A DNA stretch of 14,714 nucleotides from Candidatus Phoenicimicrobium oleiphilum (GTDB lineage Bacteria; Atribacterota; Phoenicimicrobiia; Phoenicimicrobiales; Phoenicimicrobiaceae): the NCBI GenBank assembly GCA_039638295.1, contig JBDIWJ010000040.1, positions 1 to 14,714 of the forward strand, in the 5' to 3' direction. A program made the position numbers and the translations under genes. How positions within the stretch are numbered: position 1 is the stretch's first letter; every line of letters starts with the position of its first letter. Under the pieces are notes generated by a model. It was not told the DNA's origin and did no database searches. It saw nothing but the letters and a program-made list of their open reading frames with translations. Positions 155 to 10,707 of this stretch are shown in pieces.

Positions 155-169
155 AGTGAGGTGAATTTT

Positions 170-586
170 ATGCGACTCTCTACTAGGGCAAGATATGGTA
201 CCAGGTTGATGTTGGAATTAGCCTTAAATTTTAATAAGGGAACTATCTTTTTAAAGGATATTGCCGAAAAGGAAGAAATTTCCGAAAAATATCTAAGTCA
301 CCTGGTTATCTCCCTTAAGGCAAGCGGTCTGATAAGCTCTTCTCGAGGAGCTCATGGAGGATATCGGTTAGCTAAACATCCTTCTCAGATAACTCTCAAA
401 GAGATTGTGCAAATTCTTGAAGGTGGGATAAGTTTTGTAGAATGTGTAAAAAATCCTGATATTTGTCCACGAGTTTCCAAATGTGCTACTCGCGGTATCT
501 GGGAAAAATTAGATGAAAAAATTTCCGATGAACTTAGCTCTATTACCTTGGAGGATTTAGCAAATTCGCAAAAAGAAATAAACTGA
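170..586 (+). CDS. Rrf2 family transcriptional regulator (IscR-like, three Cys)
   Basis: MRLSTRARYG N-terminus, wHTH with SRGAHGGYRL, C-x6-C-x5-C (CVKNPDICPRVSKC). Start placed at ATG 170 because GAGGTG (158-163) is an SD; the ORF track starts at 161. Confidence 0.93.
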   Translation: MRLSTRARYGTRLMLELALNFNKGTIFLKDIAEKEEISEKYLSHLVISLKASGLISSSRGAHGGYRLAKHPSQITLKEIVQILEGGISFVECVKNPDICPRVSKCATRGIWEKLDEKISDELSSITLEDLANSQKEIN

Positions 587-638
587 TTATTGCTATTTAT
601 TATATTTTATAGGTTTTCAGATGAAAGAGGTGAAATTT

Positions 639-953
639 ATGAAAGTATTGATTATGATTTTTATCATATTATTTATTTTCCCAGTTCTTGCATTTGCTGA
701 TGTAGAAGGCTGTGGATTAACCTGGGGGTGGAATCAAATGATGAATTTTGGATATAGAGGAGGAATCTTTATGATGTTAATGTTTGCAATTGTTATTGGA
801 TTGATAATTTATTTTATCATCACCAACACAAAATCTAATAGATATACAGGGGGATTTAGCGAAACTTCCTTAGATATTATTAAAGAACGATTTGCAAAGG
901 GAGAAATTACCCAAGAAGAATTTAACAAAATTAAGAAAGCATTGAGGAGTTAA
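639..953 (+). CDS. SHOCT domain membrane protein with signal peptide
   Basis: Signal-like N-terminus ending AFA-D, a G/W/M-rich segment (WGWNQMMNFGYRGG), one TM helix, and C-terminal SHOCT (LDIIKERFAKGEITQEEFNKIK). SD GAGGTG (627-632) favours ATG 639. Confidence 0.85.
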   Translation: MKVLIMIFIILFIFPVLAFADVEGCGLTWGWNQMMNFGYRGGIFMMLMFAIVIGLIIYFIITNTKSNRYTGGFSETSLDIIKERFAKGEITQEEFNKIKKALRS

Positions 954-1030: not shown

Positions 1031-1939
1031 ATGAATATATTATCAGCTATTGGTAATACACCACTTGTTGGATTAAATAATCTTAATGAGAATTCAAAGA
1101 TAAAAATTTTTGGTAAACTTGAAGGGAGTAATCCCGGCGGTTCAATCAAAGACCGTCCAGCATATTATATGATAAAAAAGGCAGAGGAGTCAGGGGAACT
1201 TACCAAGGGAAAAACAATAGTTGAGCCTACTTCAGGAAATACTGGAATTGCCCTGGCAATGATAGGTGCAGCAAAAGGATATAAAGTTAAACTTTATATG
1301 CCGGAATGTGTTAGCGTGGAAAGGCGTCGGATTATTGAAGCATTTGGAGCAGAAACAGTGCTAACTCCAGCAGAGGAAGGAACAGATGGCGCTATAAAAA
1401 GAGCTTATCAGCTTGTTACTAAGGAACCAGATAAATATTTTATGCCAAATCAATTTGAAAATGAGAATAATGTCCTTGCTCATTATGAGACTACGGGACC
1501 AGAAATATTTTCGCAAACTGAGGGAGAAATAGATTTATTGGTAGCCGGAATAGGAACGAGTGGAACCTTAATGGGAATAGGTAGATATCTCAAAGAGAAG
1601 AAGCCGCAAGTTAAAGTGATAGGGGTTGAGCCTACCATAGGACATAAAATTCAGGGACTTAAAAATATGCAAGAGGCAATTGTACCTAAAATATTCCATG
1701 CTGAGGAATTAGATGATAAGGTTACGATTGAGGATGACCTGGCTTTTGAGACCACCAGATTACTTGCTATCCAAGAAGGTCTTTTTGTAGGTATGTCTAG
1801 CGGAGCAGCTGTTGCTGGAGCTTTGCAGGTAGCTAAAAAAATGCATTCTGGAATAATTGTGGTAATTTTACCTGATAGAGGAGATAGATATTTAAGCACT
1901 ACCTTATTCCGTTCTACCTGTGGCAAGTGTCCTCCTTAG
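1031..1939 (+). CDS. cysM: PLP-dependent cysteine synthase (CysK/CysM family) with C-terminal CxxCPP
   Basis: IGNTPLV, KLEGSNPGGSIKDR (PLP lysine), EPTSGNTG, GIGTSGT, PDRGDRYLST; SD AGGAGG. CysM versus CysK subtype is tentative. Confidence 0.9.
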   Translation: MNILSAIGNTPLVGLNNLNENSKIKIFGKLEGSNPGGSIKDRPAYYMIKKAEESGELTKGKTIVEPTSGNTGIALAMIGAAKGYKVKLYMPECVSVERRRIIEAFGAETVLTPAEEGTDGAIKRAYQLVTKEPDKYFMPNQFENENNVLAHYETTGPEIFSQTEGEIDLLVAGIGTSGTLMGIGRYLKEKKPQVKVIGVEPTIGHKIQGLKNMQEAIVPKIFHAEELDDKVTIEDDLAFETTRLLAIQEGLFVGMSSGAAVAGALQVAKKMHSGIIVVILPDRGDRYLSTTLFRSTCGKCPP

Positions 1940-2018
1940 AATACAAAAAATATTTATGAGATTATTTGAATAGAAAAAAATTGTTTAATCGTGGGAGAAA
2001 TTAGAAAAAGATAAAAAT

Positions 2019-4745
2019 ATGACTTTAAAAAATACTAGAAAAATTGAAATTAATATTTTAGGAATGACCTGTGCAGGGTGTGTTGCTACCCTAGAGAAAG
2101 CCTTAGATTCCTTGAATGGTGTACTGGATGTACGGGTAAATCTAGATAGTGAAAGTGTGCTAATAGAATATGATTTTGCCAGAATTAAATATCTCGATTT
2201 AGAAAAAGCTATAAGGGAAACTGGATATCAGGCTGTTAATGAAAAAGTGATTATAAAAGTGGGAGAAATGACCTGTGCATCTTGTGCCAAAATCATTGAA
2301 GAATCTCTTCTAAAATTGGAAGGAATAACCAAAGCCAATGTGGATTTAGCCGGGGAAAAAGTACAGGTGGTTTATAATCCCGATCTTGTCTCCCCTATAA
2401 TTATGAAAAAGACCATTGAAGATAGTGGCTATAAATTTTTAGGGATAGAAGGGGAAGAAACAGAAGACCTAGCAGAAGTTATTAGAGAGAAAGATTTAAA
2501 AATAAAACGTAAACGAATTATTGTTGGACTAACTACCGGGATTTTTTTAATGCTTCTTATGTATGTCCCCTTAAACCTACCTATTACTTTGGCTTATCTT
2601 ATGTTTATTGTTTCTACCCCTGCCTTCGTTTATATTAGCTATCCTATTTTTGTAGCTGCTTATCATTCATTAAAGAATAAGCATTTAAATATGGATGTAA
2701 TGTATGCGATGGGGATTGGAGTTGCTTTTGGAACAAGCGTCTTAGCTACTTTAAAGATTTTACTTTCTTCTGATTTTTTATTTTACGAAACGGCAGTATT
2801 TTTAGCTACTTTTCTTACTATGGGACGTTATTTGGAAGCGAAGGCAAAAGGGAAAACTTCGGAAGCGATCAAAAAATTAATAGGTTTGCAACCAAAAACC
2901 GCTGCTGTTTTAAAACCTCAAAATATAGATATAGAAATTTTATATTTTAGAGATTGTCCGAACTATAATAAGGCAGCAGAACAAGTAAAAGATACTCTAA
3001 AGAAGTTGAACATTTCTGTTCCAATCAAATTAACAGAAGTAACTAAAGAGAATTTCAAAGATTATTCCTTTTACGGATCGCCAACTATTTTAGTGAACAA
3101 AAGTGATATAGAAGGGAAAATTAATAAATCATTTGGATGTAGAGTTTACACTTATAATAAGAAAATCTTTGGATATCCACATAAGGATATACTGATTAGT
3201 AAATTACTTTCCATTTTTGAAGAGCAGGAAATGCCCGTAAAAAAGGTAACAATAAATAATATATTAATAGTTAAACCAGGCGAAAAAATTCCGGTAGATG
3301 GGGAAGTTATTGAAGGTGAAAGTTATGTAGACGAATCAATGATTACCGGTGAATCTATTCCGGTTTTAAAAAAGAATGGTGATAAAATCATAGGAGGAAC
3401 AATTAATAAAAATGGAGTGATCAGATTTAAAGCAACCAGGGTAGGAAGAGATACGATGTTGGCTCAAATTATTAAACTGGTAAAAGAAGCACAGAGATCA
3501 AAACCCCCTGTACAAAGAATGGTTGATAAAGTAGTAAGTTATTTTATTCCGGTGGTATTACTAATTGCACTATCTTCTTTCTTGATTTGGTATTTTATTC
3601 TGAATAGTAGTTTTTTATTCGCGTTAACTAATTTGATTTCTGTTCTGGTGGTTGCTTGTCCTTGTGCACTTGGTCTGGCTACCCCTACCGCTATTACGGT
3701 AGGGGTAGGCAGAGGAGCAGAACTTGGCATCCTGGTCAAGAATGGAGAAGCCTTGGAAAGATCAGAAAAATTAACCACTATTATATTTGATAAAACCGGA
3801 ACCCTTACCAAAGGCAAACCCGAAGTTACAGATATTATAGGGATAACAATGGACGAAGAAAGGCTTTTAAGCTTAACTGCTAGTGTGGAAAAGAATTCTA
3901 AGCATCCTTTAGCAGAAGCCATAGTAAAAAAATCAGCAGAGAGGGATATAAAGCTTTTTAGTGGTAATAATTTTGATACTTTTGAGGGGAAGGGTGTAGC
4001 AGCTTTGATAGAAGGCAAGGAAATATTGATAGGTAATAGAACTCTTCTAAAAGAGAGAAATATTTCCTGGCCTGAATCGGTAGAAAAAAACATCTTAGAT
4101 TTCGAAAAACAGGGTAAAACAGTAATATTGATTGCTTTAAATCATCAGATAGCTGGTATTATAGCTATTGCTGATACTTTAAAAGAAACCACCAAAGAAG
4201 CCCTAGAAAGATTTAAAGCGATGAACCTCAATATTTATATGCTTACCGGTGATAATATTAGAACTGCTCGAGCCATTGCTGAACAACTTGGAATAGTAAA
4301 TGTATTAGCCCAAGTTTTACCCCAAGAGAAAGTTAAAGAAGTAAAAAGACTGCAAAAAAAGGGAGAAATAGTTGCTTTTGTAGGTGATGGGATTAATGAT
4401 GCCCCAGCTTTGACTCAGGCGGACGTTGGTATTGCCTTAGGTGGTGGTACAGATGTGGCGATAGAAAGTGGAGATATAGTACTTATTAAGGATGATCTTT
4501 TGGATGCAGTTGCAGCCTTACAATTAAGCAGAAAAGTGATGTTAAGAATTAAACAGAATATATTTTGGGCTTTTGCTTATAATACAGCTTTAATTCCAGT
4601 AGCTGCGGGAATATTATACCCCTTTTTAGGAGTTATTTTTAAGCCTGAGTTAGCGGGATTAGCTATGGCTGCTAGCTCAATTACGGTAATCAGTCTTTCA
4701 TTAATGTTGAGGAAATATGTTCCTCCAGTAAAAAATATTATGTGA
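2019..4745 (+). CDS. copA: Cu(I)-translocating P1B-1 ATPase with two HMA domains and an inserted thioredoxin-like domain
   Basis: HMA motifs GMTCAGC and EMTCASC; TGES; CPCALGLATP; DKTGTLT; HP; TGDN; GDGINDAP; transmembrane YN and MAASS motifs typical of Cu+/Ag+ exporters. Confidence 0.95.
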   Translation: MTLKNTRKIEINILGMTCAGCVATLEKALDSLNGVLDVRVNLDSESVLIEYDFARIKYLDLEKAIRETGYQAVNEKVIIKVGEMTCASCAKIIEESLLKLEGITKANVDLAGEKVQVVYNPDLVSPIIMKKTIEDSGYKFLGIEGEETEDLAEVIREKDLKIKRKRIIVGLTTGIFLMLLMYVPLNLPITLAYLMFIVSTPAFVYISYPIFVAAYHSLKNKHLNMDVMYAMGIGVAFGTSVLATLKILLSSDFLFYETAVFLATFLTMGRYLEAKAKGKTSEAIKKLIGLQPKTAAVLKPQNIDIEILYFRDCPNYNKAAEQVKDTLKKLNISVPIKLTEVTKENFKDYSFYGSPTILVNKSDIEGKINKSFGCRVYTYNKKIFGYPHKDILISKLLSIFEEQEMPVKKVTINNILIVKPGEKIPVDGEVIEGESYVDESMITGESIPVLKKNGDKIIGGTINKNGVIRFKATRVGRDTMLAQIIKLVKEAQRSKPPVQRMVDKVVSYFIPVVLLIALSSFLIWYFILNSSFLFALTNLISVLVVACPCALGLATPTAITVGVGRGAELGILVKNGEALERSEKLTTIIFDKTGTLTKGKPEVTDIIGITMDEERLLSLTASVEKNSKHPLAEAIVKKSAERDIKLFSGNNFDTFEGKGVAALIEGKEILIGNRTLLKERNISWPESVEKNILDFEKQGKTVILIALNHQIAGIIAIADTLKETTKEALERFKAMNLNIYMLTGDNIRTARAIAEQLGIVNVLAQVLPQEKVKEVKRLQKKGEIVAFVGDGINDAPALTQADVGIALGGGTDVAIESGDIVLIKDDLLDAVAALQLSRKVMLRIKQNIFWAFAYNTALIPVAAGILYPFLGVIFKPELAGLAMAASSITVISLSLMLRKYVPPVKNIM
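2916..3218 (+). other. In-frame ~101-aa insertion in CopA (thioredoxin/glutaredoxin-like fold)
   Basis: Separates LQPKTAAVLK from EEQEMP..KPGEKIPVDG, which are nearly contiguous in typical CopA; contains ILYFRDCPNY, GSPTILVN and GCRVY. Confidence 0.8.
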
Positions 4746-4761
4746 AGGGGAGGTGAGTAAA

Positions 4762-4944
4762 ATGGCTATTGACCCAGTCTGCAAAATGGAAGTAGATGAA
4801 AAGACTGCAAAGTTTAAGAGTGAGTATCATGGAAAAAACTATTATTTTTGTGCTCCAGGATGCAAGAAAAAATTTGAAGATAATCCAGAAAAATTTATTG
4901 ACAAAGAAGAGAAACGCCAACCACCAACGCATGGATATTGTTAA
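4762..4944 (+). CDS. Stand-alone YHS domain protein (putative copper binder)
   Basis: DPVCKMEVD...YHGKNYYFCAPGCKKKFEDNPEKF with a C-terminal HGYC; SD GGAGGTG (4749-4755) favours ATG 4762. Confidence 0.9.
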   Translation: MAIDPVCKMEVDEKTAKFKSEYHGKNYYFCAPGCKKKFEDNPEKFIDKEEKRQPPTHGYC

Positions 4945-5070
4945 TTTAAGATTAGTATGAACAAAAAATATTTGATTAAGAAAAAATTAATCGTTAATAT
5001 TATATAGTTTCTAACCCTTGATGAATAATGAATTTATATATAAGCTGGGTGTTTTATTTTTATGTTAAAT

Positions 5071-5156: not shown

Positions 5157-5549
5157 ATGAGAAAATCAAAAAATATTAAACTAATCGGTGTAGCACTAAT
5201 TTTTGTACTTGTTATATTGGGTATTTCAGGTTGCAGTGGTAATAATAACGATAATGGCGAAAGATATGGCGTTAACATTACTGAAAAAGAAGTTGTCAGT
5301 GTAAAAGATATTTATACTAATCCAGATGAATATCTTGGTAAAACCATCAGAGTAGAAGGGGAAATTGTGCGTGAATGTTCTTCAGGATGTTGGTTTTTTT
5401 TAGAAGATGATACAGGGACAATTTTTATAGATATTAATCCTTCCGGCCTTAGCATTCCTCCTAAGGTGGGAGAAAAAGCAATAGTAGAAGGTAAGCCTGA
5501 GAATAAGAATGGAAGAATAATCATTGTCGGAAAGGGAGTTGAGTTTTAA
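5157..5549 (+). CDS. Lipoprotein, probable OB-fold, with CxxxC motif
   Basis: Basic N-terminus, hydrophobic stretch, lipobox ISG-C26; beta-rich GKTIRVEGEIVREC74SSGC78WFFLED...VEGK pattern; SD AAGGAG. Confidence 0.8.
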   Translation: MRKSKNIKLIGVALIFVLVILGISGCSGNNNDNGERYGVNITEKEVVSVKDIYTNPDEYLGKTIRVEGEIVRECSSGCWFFLEDDTGTIFIDINPSGLSIPPKVGEKAIVEGKPENKNGRIIIVGKGVEF

Positions 5550-6733
5550 TGAAATTCTTTATTTTGGCTTATAAGAATTTAAGGCGGAGGAAATTTCGTT
5601 CCTTTTTAACCATTGGTGGAGTAGCAGTAGCAGTAGCAGTTTTAGTCAGTCTTTTAGGTTTTAATGCTGGGTATCAAGAGGCATTAACCTCTGATGTTGA
5701 TAAAATGGGATATCATGTTGTGGTAACTGCCAAGGGATGCCCCTATGAGGCAGCAACTATGATACTTAATGGAGAAGCAGGTCTCAGGTTTATAGATGAG
5801 GATATTTATAAACAAATAACTGGTGACTCTGGTATTGATAAAATCACACCATTTCTTGCCTCTTTAGCCTATGATCCCCAAAAAATGGATGGCAAAGGTG
5901 GTTTTACTAACTTTCTGGGAATTGAAAAAAGTTACCTGCAACTGAAACCAGATGCTGAATTTCTAGCTGGAGAGTGGTTTTCGGGGGACGATGTAAATGA
6001 GGTAATTTTAGGATATGATGCAGCAGAATCAGAACAAAAGTCAGTTGGTGATAAAATATTCATACCCGGAAAAGATATTGCATTTACCATAGTCGGAGTT
6101 TTTAAAAGAACAGCTACCCAGGAAGATGGAGTAATATTTTTACCTTTGAAAACAGCTCAGAAAATATTTGATGCTGAGGGAAAATTAACCGGTATCGGCA
6201 TTAAACTAAAACAAATAGAAAAGATTTCAGAATTTGAAGAGAGACTTTATCCCATTGCCAGTATTCAGGTAATAAGTATGAGCCAGGTTAAAGGGACAAT
6301 TTTGAATTTGGTAAATTCAGCTAAAATATTGATTATGTCTGTTGCCTTTATCGCAATATTTGTAGCTATTATCGGGGTAGTTAATACTATTTTAATGAGT
6401 GTCTTTGAACGAACACAAGAAATAGGCATTATGAAAGCAATAGGAGCTTCAAAGTTTGATATCTTTAGGCTCATTTGGATAGAAACTTTTATTGTTTGTA
6501 CTTTAGGAGGTATCTTGGGGTCAATTATTGCCATTTTGGGTGGAAATTTGGTTGAACTTTTAGTGAGGAAGGTAATGCCTTATGCTCCGGGAGGTAAATT
6601 GCTTTTGATTACACCTGATCTGCTGGCCTACTCTTTCCTGGGAGTAATAATTGTAGGAATAATTTCTGGATTACTTCCGGCTTTAAAGGCAGCTTCAATG
6701 AGGCCAATTGAAGTAATAAGGAGTGGAGAATGA
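5549..6733 (+). CDS. ABC transporter permease, MacB/FtsX/LolE family
   Basis: NLRRRKFRSFLTIGGVAVAV, TM1, large extracytoplasmic domain, SVFERTQEIGIMKAIGA, three more TMs, LPALKAASMRPIEVIR; TAATG overlap with the upstream gene. Confidence 0.93.
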   Translation: MKFFILAYKNLRRRKFRSFLTIGGVAVAVAVLVSLLGFNAGYQEALTSDVDKMGYHVVVTAKGCPYEAATMILNGEAGLRFIDEDIYKQITGDSGIDKITPFLASLAYDPQKMDGKGGFTNFLGIEKSYLQLKPDAEFLAGEWFSGDDVNEVILGYDAAESEQKSVGDKIFIPGKDIAFTIVGVFKRTATQEDGVIFLPLKTAQKIFDAEGKLTGIGIKLKQIEKISEFEERLYPIASIQVISMSQVKGTILNLVNSAKILIMSVAFIAIFVAIIGVVNTILMSVFERTQEIGIMKAIGASKFDIFRLIWIETFIVCTLGGILGSIIAILGGNLVELLVRKVMPYAPGGKLLLITPDLLAYSFLGVIIVGIISGLLPALKAASMRPIEVIRSGE

Positions 6734-7440
6734 TGGAAGAGTTGGTCATCAAGGCGATAAAATTAAAGAAACAATATTCTTCTGTATCCCAGAGAATAAC
6801 AGCTTTAAAGGAAATAGATATAGAAATAAAAAGAGGTGAGTTTGTGGCTTTAATGGGCCCATCTGGAGCAGGGAAGACTACCTTTTTGAATTTAATCGGC
6901 TGCTTGGATAAACCTACTTCAGGAATTTTAAACATCTTGGGTAGTAATACTATAGGATTTAATGAGGAAAAACTCAACCGTATTAGAGCGGAAAAAATTG
7001 GATTCGTGTTTGAAGATTTTTTCTTAATTTCATCCTTGAATTCATTAGAAAATGTACAATTACCCCTGCTTTTTGCGGGAAATTATAAATGTAAAAATAA
7101 GGATAAAGCAAAAGATCTTTTAAAAAAAATGGGATTGAGTCATAGATTGTCTCATTATCCCAATGAGTTAAGCGGTGGAGAATTACAACGAGTAGCAGTA
7201 GCCAGGGCTTTAGTTAATAATCCTGATATCCTTCTTGCGGATGAGCCTACTGGTAATTTGGACACCAGGAATGCACATGGACTTTTTAAACTTTTTCGAA
7301 ATCTTAATCAGGAAGAGGGATTAACCATTGTAGTTGCTACCCACAATGTCAAATTAGCTTATTTAGCGGACAGAGTTATTCATCTGAATGATGGGAAAAT
7401 AGTACAAGACGAAAGGTTGGTAAGGCAAGATGGAAGATAA
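6730..7440 (+). CDS. ABC transporter ATP-binding protein 1 (LolD/MacB-like)
   Basis: Walker A GPSGAGKT, LSGGE, LLADEPTGNLD, ATH; Q-loop reads FVFE; ATGA overlap with the permease. Confidence 0.93.
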   Translation: MMEELVIKAIKLKKQYSSVSQRITALKEIDIEIKRGEFVALMGPSGAGKTTFLNLIGCLDKPTSGILNILGSNTIGFNEEKLNRIRAEKIGFVFEDFFLISSLNSLENVQLPLLFAGNYKCKNKDKAKDLLKKMGLSHRLSHYPNELSGGELQRVAVARALVNNPDILLADEPTGNLDTRNAHGLFKLFRNLNQEEGLTIVVATHNVKLAYLADRVIHLNDGKIVQDERLVRQDGR

Positions 7441-8125
7441 GGTAATTCTGGAAGCGAAAAATTTGAAAAAATACTATAGACGTGGTTCGGAAATTGTCAA
7501 AGCACTCAATGGAGTAGATTTTAAAATCAAAGAGGGTGAGATTGTTTCAATTGTGGGACCCTCCGGTTCAGGAAAGACCACTTTAATGAACCTGATTGGT
7601 TGCCTGGATAGAGCTACCTCAGGGAGCCTAAAAATTGGTAGTATTAATATCACTTCTCTGGATGAGGTTGATCTAGTTAAAATAAGAAGAGGGAATATTG
7701 GATTTGTTTTTCAGAGATTTTACTTAATTCCAACCTTAACTGTTAGAGAAAACTTAGAACTACCTTTAATTTTTGCGAAGAAAAAAATCATAGCGAAAGA
7801 AATATTAGATATTTTAAAAGAAGTAAGACTCGAAGATAAAGCAGAAATTCCAGTGAAATACTTATCCGGTGGAGATAAGCAACGAACAGGTATAGCTCGA
7901 GCTTTGGTTAATAATCCTAAGATACTTATTGCTGATGAACCTACTGGTAGATTAGAGGCAAGAGTGGGAATGCAGATTCTAGAACTTTTCCTGAGATTAA
8001 GCAAAAAAGGTTTGGCAGTATTTATTGCTACCCATGATTTGGAATTAGCCCAGGCTACTCAAAGGATAATTCACCTTCAAGATGGGAGAATCATTACTAA
8101 AGAAAAATCTGATTTATATTATTGA
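7430..8125 (+). CDS. ABC transporter ATP-binding protein 2 (LolD/MacB-like)
   Basis: Walker A GPSGSGKT, FVFQ, LSGGD, LIADEPTGRLE, ATHD; 11-nt overlap with ATPase 1. Confidence 0.93.
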   Translation: MEDKVILEAKNLKKYYRRGSEIVKALNGVDFKIKEGEIVSIVGPSGSGKTTLMNLIGCLDRATSGSLKIGSINITSLDEVDLVKIRRGNIGFVFQRFYLIPTLTVRENLELPLIFAKKKIIAKEILDILKEVRLEDKAEIPVKYLSGGDKQRTGIARALVNNPKILIADEPTGRLEARVGMQILELFLRLSKKGLAVFIATHDLELAQATQRIIHLQDGRIITKEKSDLYY

Positions 8126-8168
8126 TAAAATTTATTTTTAAAAATAAAAAAAGAAAGGAGCAAAAACA

Positions 8169-8627
8169 ATGAATAAAAATATAATAATATTTTTACTTGC
8201 TGTAGCAGTAATTATACTGGGAGGTATTTTAATATTTAGCAATAACCAAAATAGTTCCTCTAATGCTAACTCAAATAAGTCTAAACTTCAGCCAAGGATT
8301 ATAGTTTCGGAAGAAGAATGGGATTTTGGAAAGGTAGTTCAGGGGGAAAAGCCTACCCATACTTTTATGGTAAAAAATGGAGGAGAAGGGGAGTTAATTA
8401 TTGAGCGGATAAAAGAATCTTGTAGTTGTATAGAGGCTTCAATTTCTACTACTCGCCTTCAATCGGGAGATACAGCAGAAGTTACTGTAACCTATGATAC
8501 TACAGATTATTTAGGAAAGGATGAAAAACATATCCATATTTATTCAAATGATCCTGGAGTGCCAGATAAAAGAATTAATTTATATGTTGAAATAGAAAAG
8601 CCAAAAATACCTTATTTAAATGACTAA
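8169..8627 (+). CDS. Membrane-anchored DUF1573-type (Ig-like) protein with CxC motif
   Basis: N-terminal TM, N/S-rich linker, WDFGKV..HTFMVKNGG..LII..ESCSC..IYSNDP pattern; SD AAGGAG. Confidence 0.8.
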   Translation: MNKNIIIFLLAVAVIILGGILIFSNNQNSSSNANSNKSKLQPRIIVSEEEWDFGKVVQGEKPTHTFMVKNGGEGELIIERIKESCSCIEASISTTRLQSGDTAEVTVTYDTTDYLGKDEKHIHIYSNDPGVPDKRINLYVEIEKPKIPYLND

Positions 8628-9627: not shown

Positions 9628-9678
9628 TATTGTAATTTACCATAAATTTATTTGAAAGGAAAATTTAGTGTAAAGGCC

Positions 9679-10707
9679 ATGATAATAGAATTTTTTACAA
9701 CATTCAAAGAATATCTGGTTGAAGTATTACCTTTTATGATTATCGGGTTTGCCTTAAGTGGTTTAATCCATGAGTTTATTCCTACACGATTAGTGGAAAG
9801 ACATCTTGGCGGTAAAGGTATAAAACCTATTCTTTATTCTACCCTTGTCGGGACACTTCTTCCTGTCTGCTGTATAGGTTCACTCCCGATAGCATTAAGC
9901 CTACACCAGAAAGGGGCAAGACTTGGACCTGTTTTAGCTTTTTTGGTAGCCACACCCGCCACTTCTATAACTGCCATTTTAGTTTGTTATGGTCTGTTAG
10001 GGTTAAAATTTACACTGTTTATATTTTTTGCCGTAATTTTAATGGGATTAATTATGGGAATCATGGGTAATTTAATTAAACTTGCGCCACCTAAAAATAT
10101 GGCTAATTATGTTTGCTGTCAAGAAAAGGAACTGGCTGTAGATCCTATCTGCGGAATGAATGTGGATATAAACAAAGGATTAAAAACAGAGTATCAAGGG
10201 GAGTATTATTATTTTTGTTCAGCTCATTGTCAGGTCGTTTTTGAAAAAAACTCCGAGAAATTTGTTAATATTAAAGAATATACAGGCGCAAAAAGCATTG
10301 AAGGGAGGTTAAGGTCTGTATTTAAATATGCATTTATTGATATGGTTAAGGAGATCGGACCCGAAATATTTATAGGGTTAGTATTTGCAGCATTAGTGTC
10401 CACAATTACTCTGGTAGGGAAATTTGTAGGGGACCACTTTGGTGGTGGTCTTGGTTATCTATTCAGTCTTGGCTTTGGTTTGATAATGTATATCTGTTCT
10501 ACTGCTAGTGTGCCTTTAGTTCATGCTTTTATTTCCCAGGGTATGAATATTGGAGCTGGTATGGTATTGCTTATAGCAGGACCGGTTACCAGCTGGGGGG
10601 TTCTTTTAGTCCTAAGGAAGTCTTTTGGCGGTAAAACATTAATTTTGTATTTAACCATTATTAGCATTTTAGCTCTCTCTTTGGGTTATACATTTTCTCT
10701 AATTTAA
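9679..10707 (+). CDS. DUF318/ArsP-type permease with internal YHS domain
   Basis: Two homologous hydrophobic halves with LPVCCIGSLP..FLVATP and MYICSTASVP..LIAGP; YHS domain at 10135-10263. Start uncertain (TTG 9652 or ATG 9679). Confidence 0.88.
   Translation: MIIEFFTTFKEYLVEVLPFMIIGFALSGLIHEFIPTRLVERHLGGKGIKPILYSTLVGTLLPVCCIGSLPIALSLHQKGARLGPVLAFLVATPATSITAILVCYGLLGLKFTLFIFFAVILMGLIMGIMGNLIKLAPPKNMANYVCCQEKELAVDPICGMNVDINKGLKTEYQGEYYYFCSAHCQVVFEKNSEKFVNIKEYTGAKSIEGRLRSVFKYAFIDMVKEIGPEIFIGLVFAALVSTITLVGKFVGDHFGGGLGYLFSLGFGLIMYICSTASVPLVHAFISQGMNIGAGMVLLIAGPVTSWGVLLVLRKSFGGKTLILYLTIISILALSLGYTFSLI

Follow-up and report, generated by a model that had tools for sequence, protein, structure and literature searches.

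A DF-family domain with a predicted thioredoxin-like fold nested in the actuator hairpin of a CopA-type copper ATPase from Atribacterota

The stretch considered here (the window) is the 14,714 nucleotides of contig JBDIWJ010000040.1 of Candidatus Phoenicimicrobium oleiphilum, and its central gene is copA, a forward-strand frame that stays open across 908 amino acids and encodes a heavy-metal P-type ATPase. The protein scores 597 bits against the copper ATPase profile TIGR01511 (cut-off 397) and 616 bits against TIGR01525 (cut-off 346), and its best PDB sequence match is the CopA of Archaeoglobus fulgidus (3j09, 7r0g and 2hc8; E 4e-232). The pump motifs are all intact, the catalytic ones as an initial annotation of this DNA had stated: the P-type catalytic set TGE, DKTGT, TGDN and GDGxND (here GDGIND) is complete, and the P1B-1 signature is present as CPC in transmembrane helix M4, YN (FAYNT) in M5 and MxxSS (AMAASS) in M6, together with CxxC motifs in two N-terminal HMA domains. 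On these motifs the protein is assigned to the P1B-1 class of Cu(I)-ATPases, for which Cu(I)-stimulated ATPase activity and export are predicted. It shares the N-terminal HMA, TGE, CPC, DKTGT, YN and MxxSS with both the A. fulgidus and the Thermococcus CopA proteins, and the latter (WP_062390941.1, the best of 11 plasmid matches) is 60% identical over the core.

The departure from these two pumps lies in the actuator domain, where the turn between the first two strands is two residues long in A. fulgidus and Thermococcus and holds a 101-residue domain in the window. The inserted segment runs from P300 to F400 and includes the motifs DC313PNY, GSP355TILVN and GC374RVY. When the protein is aligned to A. 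fulgidus CopA with HMMER, residues 161–299 correspond to its 83–217 and residues 403–905 to its 222–719, only four A. fulgidus residues (218–221) standing opposite window residues 300–402; the Thermococcus hairpin reads ALVLR-DG-EEIEVP, and that of the window reads AAVLK, then the 101 residues, then EEQEMP. Both alignments therefore indicate that the insert replaces the two-residue turn, in agreement with the earlier suggestion that residues ~300–400 interrupt the first hairpin of the actuator at about its DG turn. MAFFT, in one alignment, placed the insertion before strand beta-1 instead, a placement rejected because the HMMER alignment, the Thermococcus alignment and the structural model described below all favour the hairpin.

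Table 1. Positions of copA, its domains and motifs, and the neighbouring genes within the window
Feature	Position	Strand	Basis or remark
copA	2019..4745	+	P1B-1 Cu(I)-type ATPase of 908 aa; HMA domains (two) at N-terminus, DF domain internal
HMA domain 1 (MTCAGC)	2049..2231	+	profile match, motif
HMA domain 2 (MTCASC)	2253..2435	+	profile match, motif
Actuator strand beta-1 (T294-K299), N-terminal flank of insert	2898..2915	+	alignment and model strand
Inserted DF-family (NF049942 / DUF2703-like) domain, residues 300-400	2916..3218	+	predicted thioredoxin-like fold
Cys313, position of first (attacking) Cys of thioredoxin CxxC; Tyr316 at second	2955..2957	+	1fo5 alignment
GSPT loop, Pro355 at thioredoxin cis-Pro position (cis state inferred)	3075..3086	+	60/60 clusters
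C374-R-V-Y motif, second conserved Cys	3138..3149	+	C in 59/60 clusters, R and Y in 60/60
Actuator strand beta-2 (E401-P406), C-terminal flank of insert	3219..3236	+	alignment and model strand
TGE dephosphorylation motif of actuator	3345..3353	+	kept in 60/60 clusters
CPC transmembrane metal site (residues 547-549)	3657..3665	+	motif
DKTGT phosphorylation site	3789..3803	+	motif
Rrf2 regulator	161-586	+	upstream of copA
SHOCT membrane protein	621-953	+	upstream of copA
Cysteine synthase	1031-1939	+	upstream of copA
Small YHS-domain protein	4762..4944	+	directly 3' of copA; PF04945, E 5.5e-19

A homologue search with residues 285–420 as query returned, among 800 candidates, 60 protein clusters including the window's own, which span 64–100% identity; the insert occupies the same site in the other 59, all 60 align unbroken over both junctions, and the cluster members that bear names are Atribacterota. 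Four public sequencing runs were compared with positions 1,900–5,000: a contig of run X5, possibly the source of this DNA, covers the entire stretch, a contig of X11 covers both junctions (2,792–3,257), contigs of X15 bridge each junction and a contig of X13 bridges the first. Over this region no joint, indel or variant letter was found in the contigs of the four runs, and one loose end, from a single X11 contig, falls at 2,943. The 59 clusters with the same insertion and the bridging contigs from other runs rule out an assembly chimera, and the junctions can be taken as genuine. The runs that hold the sequence most strongly are mostly oil-field or crude-oil metagenomes (nine of the entries may be the source itself), and copA is also present in contigs of RNA libraries, a presence that cannot show transcription. 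Some variation among the homologues deserves separate mention: the first HMA motif reads MTYAMCA in 5 of the 60 clusters, some members (P0055, P0057, P0059 and P0107) have a single HMA domain, and one fused copA (L004, G008:C96) carries a frameshift inside the insert, either an assembly error or a pseudogene.

Scored alone, the insert matches NCBIfam NF049942, the DF family (seleno)protein, with 75 bits against a cut-off of 70 over positions 1–93 of the 96-position profile (69.5 bits when the whole CopA protein is scored), the match spanning 2,931–3,194 of the window. It also exceeds the cut-off of Pfam DUF2703 (26.9 bits against 23.6), and its first ESM Atlas match is again named DF family (0.93). 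The residues conserved in DF proteins (C-P, F-x-GSP, D, C-R-x-Y and P) are all kept, and by sequence the insert is a complete DF-family/DUF2703-like domain. The deep-Sep report (PMC12013277) presents "hypothetical protein DF" as predicted to contain selenocysteine (Sec) in one Desulfosediminicola genome, with many Cys homologues and no further TGA-bearing one; a 2026 review lists DF without motif or function and states that most selenoproteins of this sort are thought to be redox-active (PMC13188914), and DF does not appear in the accessible sections of PMC2398784. DUF2703 has been assigned to the thioredoxin clan and predicted to act as an oxidoreductase (PMC3091736), and a member encoded in a Rhodococcus ars cluster has been proposed, not demonstrated, as the reductant of ArsC (PMC6514093). 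Sec recoding is ruled out for the insert, in which both Cys codons are TGT and no TGA occurs in frame, making it a Cys-type member of the family.

Several comparisons bear on the fold. A profile of nine DF domains matches the MJ0307 thioredoxin (1fo5, E 0.00038), with Cys313 aligned to the first Cys of its CPHC motif, Tyr316 to the second Cys and Pro355 to the Pro of its AVPT loop. Residues 285–480 were modelled on a mixed 37-row alignment, in which the empty-site rows were trimmed to start at beta-2 to avoid bias on the insertion site, and gave a predicted local distance difference test score (pLDDT) of 92.6 and a predicted template modelling score (pTM) of 0.83, with strands at 294–299 and 401–406 (model residues 10–15 and 117–122) flanking the insert. 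In a fold comparison with 48,161 chains, the two flanks together contribute 97 residues that superpose on the A. fulgidus actuator (Z 18.6, root-mean-square deviation (rmsd) 1.0 Å), the insert matches thioredoxins (Z 8.4, rmsd 2.7–2.9 Å over 81–82 residues), and rows 24 to 50 of the fold matches are mostly thioredoxin-fold chains. In a Foldseek search with the same two-domain model the top 50 matches are all actuators, the actuator core superposing at 0.4 Å over 76 columns. The thioredoxin core is predicted to run beta-alpha-beta-alpha-beta-beta-alpha with a short second helix, the Cys starting helix 1 and the Pro lying before strand 3. The models thus predict an actuator that folds normally around the insert and an insert that adopts the thioredoxin-like fold proposed in the initial annotation; since the tool advises caution at about the Z of this fold match, the assignment rests on the fold match and the 1fo5 profile match together. 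A full-length model built from 34 close sequences was poor (pLDDT 54, pTM 0.33), and its Foldseek matches are only CopA. A canonical thioredoxin or glutaredoxin is ruled out, given that C313-P-N-Y316 lacks the CxxC and that Thioredoxin_3 scores 17.9 bits, below its cut-off of 24.8. ArsD and Sco, which carry soft metals or metalloids on the cysteines of thioredoxin-like folds (PMC3091736 and PMC7558416), differ from the insert in their ligand sets; no Pfam or NCBIfam match links the insert to either, and neither is among the top 50 fold matches, a result that does not exclude them.

The two cysteines on which the initial annotation had focused are conserved well beyond the window. Of the 60 CopA clusters, 59 retain Cys313 and 59 retain Cys374, and among 39 DF domains outside CopA, Cys313 is present in 38 (one is truncated) and both Cys374 and GSP in all 39. 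A simple pattern finds both Cys in 131 of the 147 locatable cases among the 150 best DF representatives, several of the misses being failures of the pattern itself. The case that stands apart is cluster P0061, in which all four members (P0061 and P0096–P0098) have lost both Cys and have kept TGE, CPC, DKTGT and both HMA motifs; a joint loss of this kind fits a working pair. The 48 other pump members in which the site can be located keep both Cys, and a further 10 were not located by the pattern. No conserved His or Met ligand was found in the insert across the 60 clusters.

The composition of the insert is less telling than it first appeared. The initial contrast between an insert of ~27% GC and a downstream region of ~41% is reproduced by measurement (0.271 against 0.41 for 3,600–3,899), but the argument drawn from it fails: the comparison region is among the GC-richest parts of copA (whole gene 0.344, genome 0.334), and over five loci the GC content at third codon positions is similar in the insert (0.22–0.26) and its flanks (0.17–0.30). 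The deficit falls mainly on codon positions 1–2 (0.297 against 0.383 and 0.413), and with similar third positions this leaves no GC sign of recent transfer, and a recent low-GC acquisition was rejected. The altered GD motif downstream (VTINNI) is likewise real and only partly peculiar to the window: 59 of the 60 clusters have N at position 413, which makes the G-to-N change clade-wide, and the same number have D at position 414, where the window alone has N. Over 10 pairs from five genomes, the ratio of nonsynonymous to synonymous substitution rates (dN/dS) is 0.11–0.31 in the insert, 0.14–0.19 upstream and 0.07–0.15 downstream, and among 49 full-length proteins the mean identity of the insert is 0.825, equal to that of HMA2, against 0.91 for the rest of the actuator.

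Within the phylum, NF049942 was found in 9 of 86 Atribacterota genomes, all of the window's family: eight carry it in CopA frames (three of them cut or frameshifted) and one in an arsenate-reductase-like fusion. The insert is present in all eight of these DF-bearing CopA frames, and the search gave no copy with an empty site at 70% identity or above. Empty-site relatives, a comparison to which the initial annotation had pointed, do occur among the more distant CopA loci of the phylum, as discussed below; some of them (L055, L057, L063, L066 and L068, in families f3 and f4) have an additional hydrophobic helix followed by a C-terminal extension of ~230 residues that looks like an internal repeat.

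Outside this clade the DF domain has a different habit. A search for longer DF-bearing proteins, in which 8,000 candidates were scored and 90 returned, gave 69 proteins of this pump clade and 21 other fusions, part of which may be gene-calling artefacts. In all 21 the DF domain is terminal, which bears out the view that its internal location here is unusual; the partners are low-molecular-weight arsenate-reductase-like domains (4), CDF proteins (3), ABC-2 permeases (3), methyltransferases (3), regions of no family (3), and a nitroreductase, YHS, MerB, MerC and MerR (one each). An exhaustive profile search yielded 2,434 DF representatives, the best 150 of which include 13 of at least 200 residues and a single P-type ATPase, P0173, which has two HMA domains and, in the same hairpin, a DF domain with both Cys; its core is 50% and its insert 30–37% identical to the clade. 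Among 21 longer representatives that were scanned, the arrangement DF-MerT-HMA was seen twice, and DF-MerT and YHS-DF once each. In genome G003, of the window's own family, a DF domain lies in front of a thioredoxin-type arsenate-reductase-like domain (L030:1063-1791, minus strand), and this is the non-CopA DF domain nearest to the insert among the 39 compared (36%).

Free DF genes complete the picture. Four of 33 plasmid DF loci were viewed: one lies in an ars cluster, one behind a cation transporter, one directly after a Zn/Cd-type P1B ATPase and one has no metal link, and these ars and P1B loci, with the DF match, bear out the proposed kinship with small stand-alone proteins of metal-resistance loci. 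The P1B case is a Rubrobacter plasmid on which an ArsR regulator and the ATPase precede the free DF gene (L042:2220-5324). In Nitrospinota (the phylum of G086), 34 DF matches in 29 of 120 genomes all lie in frames of 250 residues or fewer. At L080, L083 and L085 a free DF gene overlaps a downstream gene that starts with a WCP thioredoxin-like motif and has no Pfam match at 1e-4. A word search with the insert found no free relatives, a limit of sensitivity, as the other searches gave many.

In a pump tree the fused pumps form one group (99 by the Shimodaira-Hasegawa-like approximate likelihood ratio test, SH-aLRT), the sister of which is Thermococcus CopA (97) and not the empty-site pumps of the phylum. 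P0057 is the earliest branch of the pump tree and of the insert tree alike, and the insert of P0173 groups with the clade inserts (89), its pump sitting on a long branch just outside the Thermococcus branch. One old insertion of DF into CopA is the simplest reading of these sequence relationships; the trees are quick and sparsely sampled, and cannot separate one old insertion followed by losses from two insertions at one site.

The order Rrf2, SHOCT, cysteine synthase, copA is kept in related loci. The YHS protein encoded directly downstream is likely a soluble metal chaperone; its gene follows copA in the window and in two other genomes, and in three it was not found by pattern. Farther downstream, 5,157–8,627 encodes a lipoprotein, a MacB/FtsX-type ABC permease, two ATP-binding subunits and a DUF1573 protein, the lipoprotein gene lying 3' of copA in related loci too, and 9,652–10,707 encodes a permease of the SO_0444/ArsP type, inside which residues 163–206 form a YHS domain, a second nested metal domain. 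A promoter scan of the window gave no excess over shuffles (15 against 22), and a perfect TTGACA-17-TATAAT site lies at 94–122, upstream of the Rrf2 gene. The genome, 91% complete, encodes thioredoxins and thioredoxin reductase, and in it no HMA domain outside this pump and no free CopZ was found. In a single case, the Thermococcus plasmid, the gene after copA encodes a stand-alone canonical thioredoxin (CPPC, not of the DF family; L077:5596-5901), and a divergent TRASH-domain gene lies before copA. A csoR-copA-copZ cluster at L009/L072 (G039:C154), which we take to resemble that of Staphylococcus, may be a contaminant contig in its genome.

What might a dithiol domain do on the actuator of a copper pump? 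The reading we favour, tentatively and at a little under an even chance, is that the insert is a tethered dithiol reductase that keeps the CxxC sites of the HMA domains reduced. Cys313, beside Pro355, would attack the HMA CxxC motifs (or a YHS partner) where these carry a disulfide or mixed disulfide, Cys374 would resolve the bond, and the cellular thioredoxin/thioredoxin-reductase system would re-reduce the DF domain; this dithiol may bind Cu(I) for a short time as well. The model for such a role is human glutaredoxin-1 (Grx1), which acts as a reductant of Atox1 and also binds Cu(I) and hands it to domains of ATP7B (PMC7057996), a thioredoxin-fold dithiol serving the CxxC domains of a P1B ATPase; unlike the insert, Grx1 is a separate, glutathione-coupled protein with a CxxC. 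The reductase reading draws on the thioredoxin-type positions of Cys313 and Pro355, the predicted Sec form of DF, the range of partner metals and the repeated ArsC fusions, DF being joined to a thioredoxin-type arsenate-reductase-like domain in genome G003 and in 4 of the 21 non-CopA fusions, and to MerT-HMA twice. The conservation of the two Cys and the thioredoxin and thioredoxin reductase encoded in the genome speak for it as well. That rotation of the actuator carries the dithiol to and from the HMA CxxC once per cycle, timing reduction or Cu hand-over, is a further step that we consider unlikely.

A number of observations weigh against a tethered reductase. No measured activity for any DF protein was found in the literature searched, the insert lacks a CxxC and has Tyr316 in the second position, and two full-length members among the 10 not located by the pattern have both Cys and read GSLT, having lost Pro355. 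The insert's fold match reaches only Z 7–8.4, a range in which the tool cautions of common arrangements. The P0061 cluster, with its pump motifs intact, shows that one lineage at least can do without the pair, and of 22 other CopA loci in the phylum (45–53% identity) 19 have an empty hairpin and three were not located by pattern. At 12 free DF loci in Nitrospinota, a MerR or HMA neighbour was seen at only 3 (21 of 79 open reading frames scanned). The host lineage is anaerobic, and an anaerobic host with free thioredoxins of its own has less need of a private reductase.

The alternative that survives best, which we regard as possible and somewhat unlikely, is that the insert is a third copper site, with Cys313 and Cys374 relaying Cu(I) among YHS, HMA and the entry site, or sensing Cu and modulating the actuator. 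A relay would suit the fusions of DF to parts of soft-metal transport (MerT-HMA twice, MerT, MerC, CDF three times, YHS twice), the Rubrobacter gene order and the lack of a free CopZ in the searched genome; thioredoxin-fold metal carriers do exist in ArsD, Sco and Grx1 (PMC3091736, PMC7558416 and PMC7057996), and the Grx1–ATP7B precedent in trans supports a relay as well as a reductase. However, the ArsC fusions and the predicted Sec form suit redox chemistry better, the partner metals range over As, Hg, Cu and Zn/Cd, the insert has no conserved His or Met ligand, and the pump is already served by HMA domains and, in part of the genomes, by a YHS protein.

It is improbable, in our estimate, that the pump simply tolerates the insert as a passenger, a DF gene having lodged in a permissive surface hairpin and being kept mainly to hold the actuator ends together. 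The four-member cluster without both Cys, the faster evolution of the insert relative to the rest of the actuator (by identity, and by a dN/dS of 0.11–0.31 against 0.07–0.15) and its absence from most relatives are what a passenger would leave, but both Cys are kept in P0173 in spite of its divergent insert, the insert is as conserved as HMA2, and in the window's family each DF-bearing CopA frame holds it with no close empty-site copy found. An allosteric redox switch, in which closure of a Cys313–Cys374 disulfide would make the hairpin stiffer or looser and raise or lower the activity of the pump, is very unlikely: the internal location on a moving domain, unlike that of the 21 terminal fusions, and the position of copA behind an Rrf2 regulator and a cysteine synthase would suit it, but the motif set is that of free DF proteins, suggesting retained chemistry and not a new switch, and the actuator core is predicted to be undistorted.

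Both parts of this protein belong to known families, and it is their arrangement that appears to be undescribed. In P1B pumps, accessory domains are described at the two termini (PMC7558416, section 5.1.1), known DF members are free proteins of ~100 residues or terminal fusions, and in the literature searched (subscription papers lie outside its coverage) no DF domain within an actuator was described. That a whole domain sits in this hairpin and is kept over pumps only 50% identical shows that the site tolerates cargo and places a dithiol on a moving part of the pump. The layout gives a test of how thiol redox governs the Cu loading of CopA, which in humans is known only through the separate Grx1, and natural controls exist in the empty-site relatives, the P0061 cluster without both Cys and the far relative P0173. 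It also offers a way into a family of metal-resistance loci that lacks characterisation: should an actuator-timed oxidoreductase prove true, it would be the first function for the DF family, with more than 2,400 clusters at 50% identity, and DF would serve generally to maintain thiols in resistance to As, Hg and Cu.

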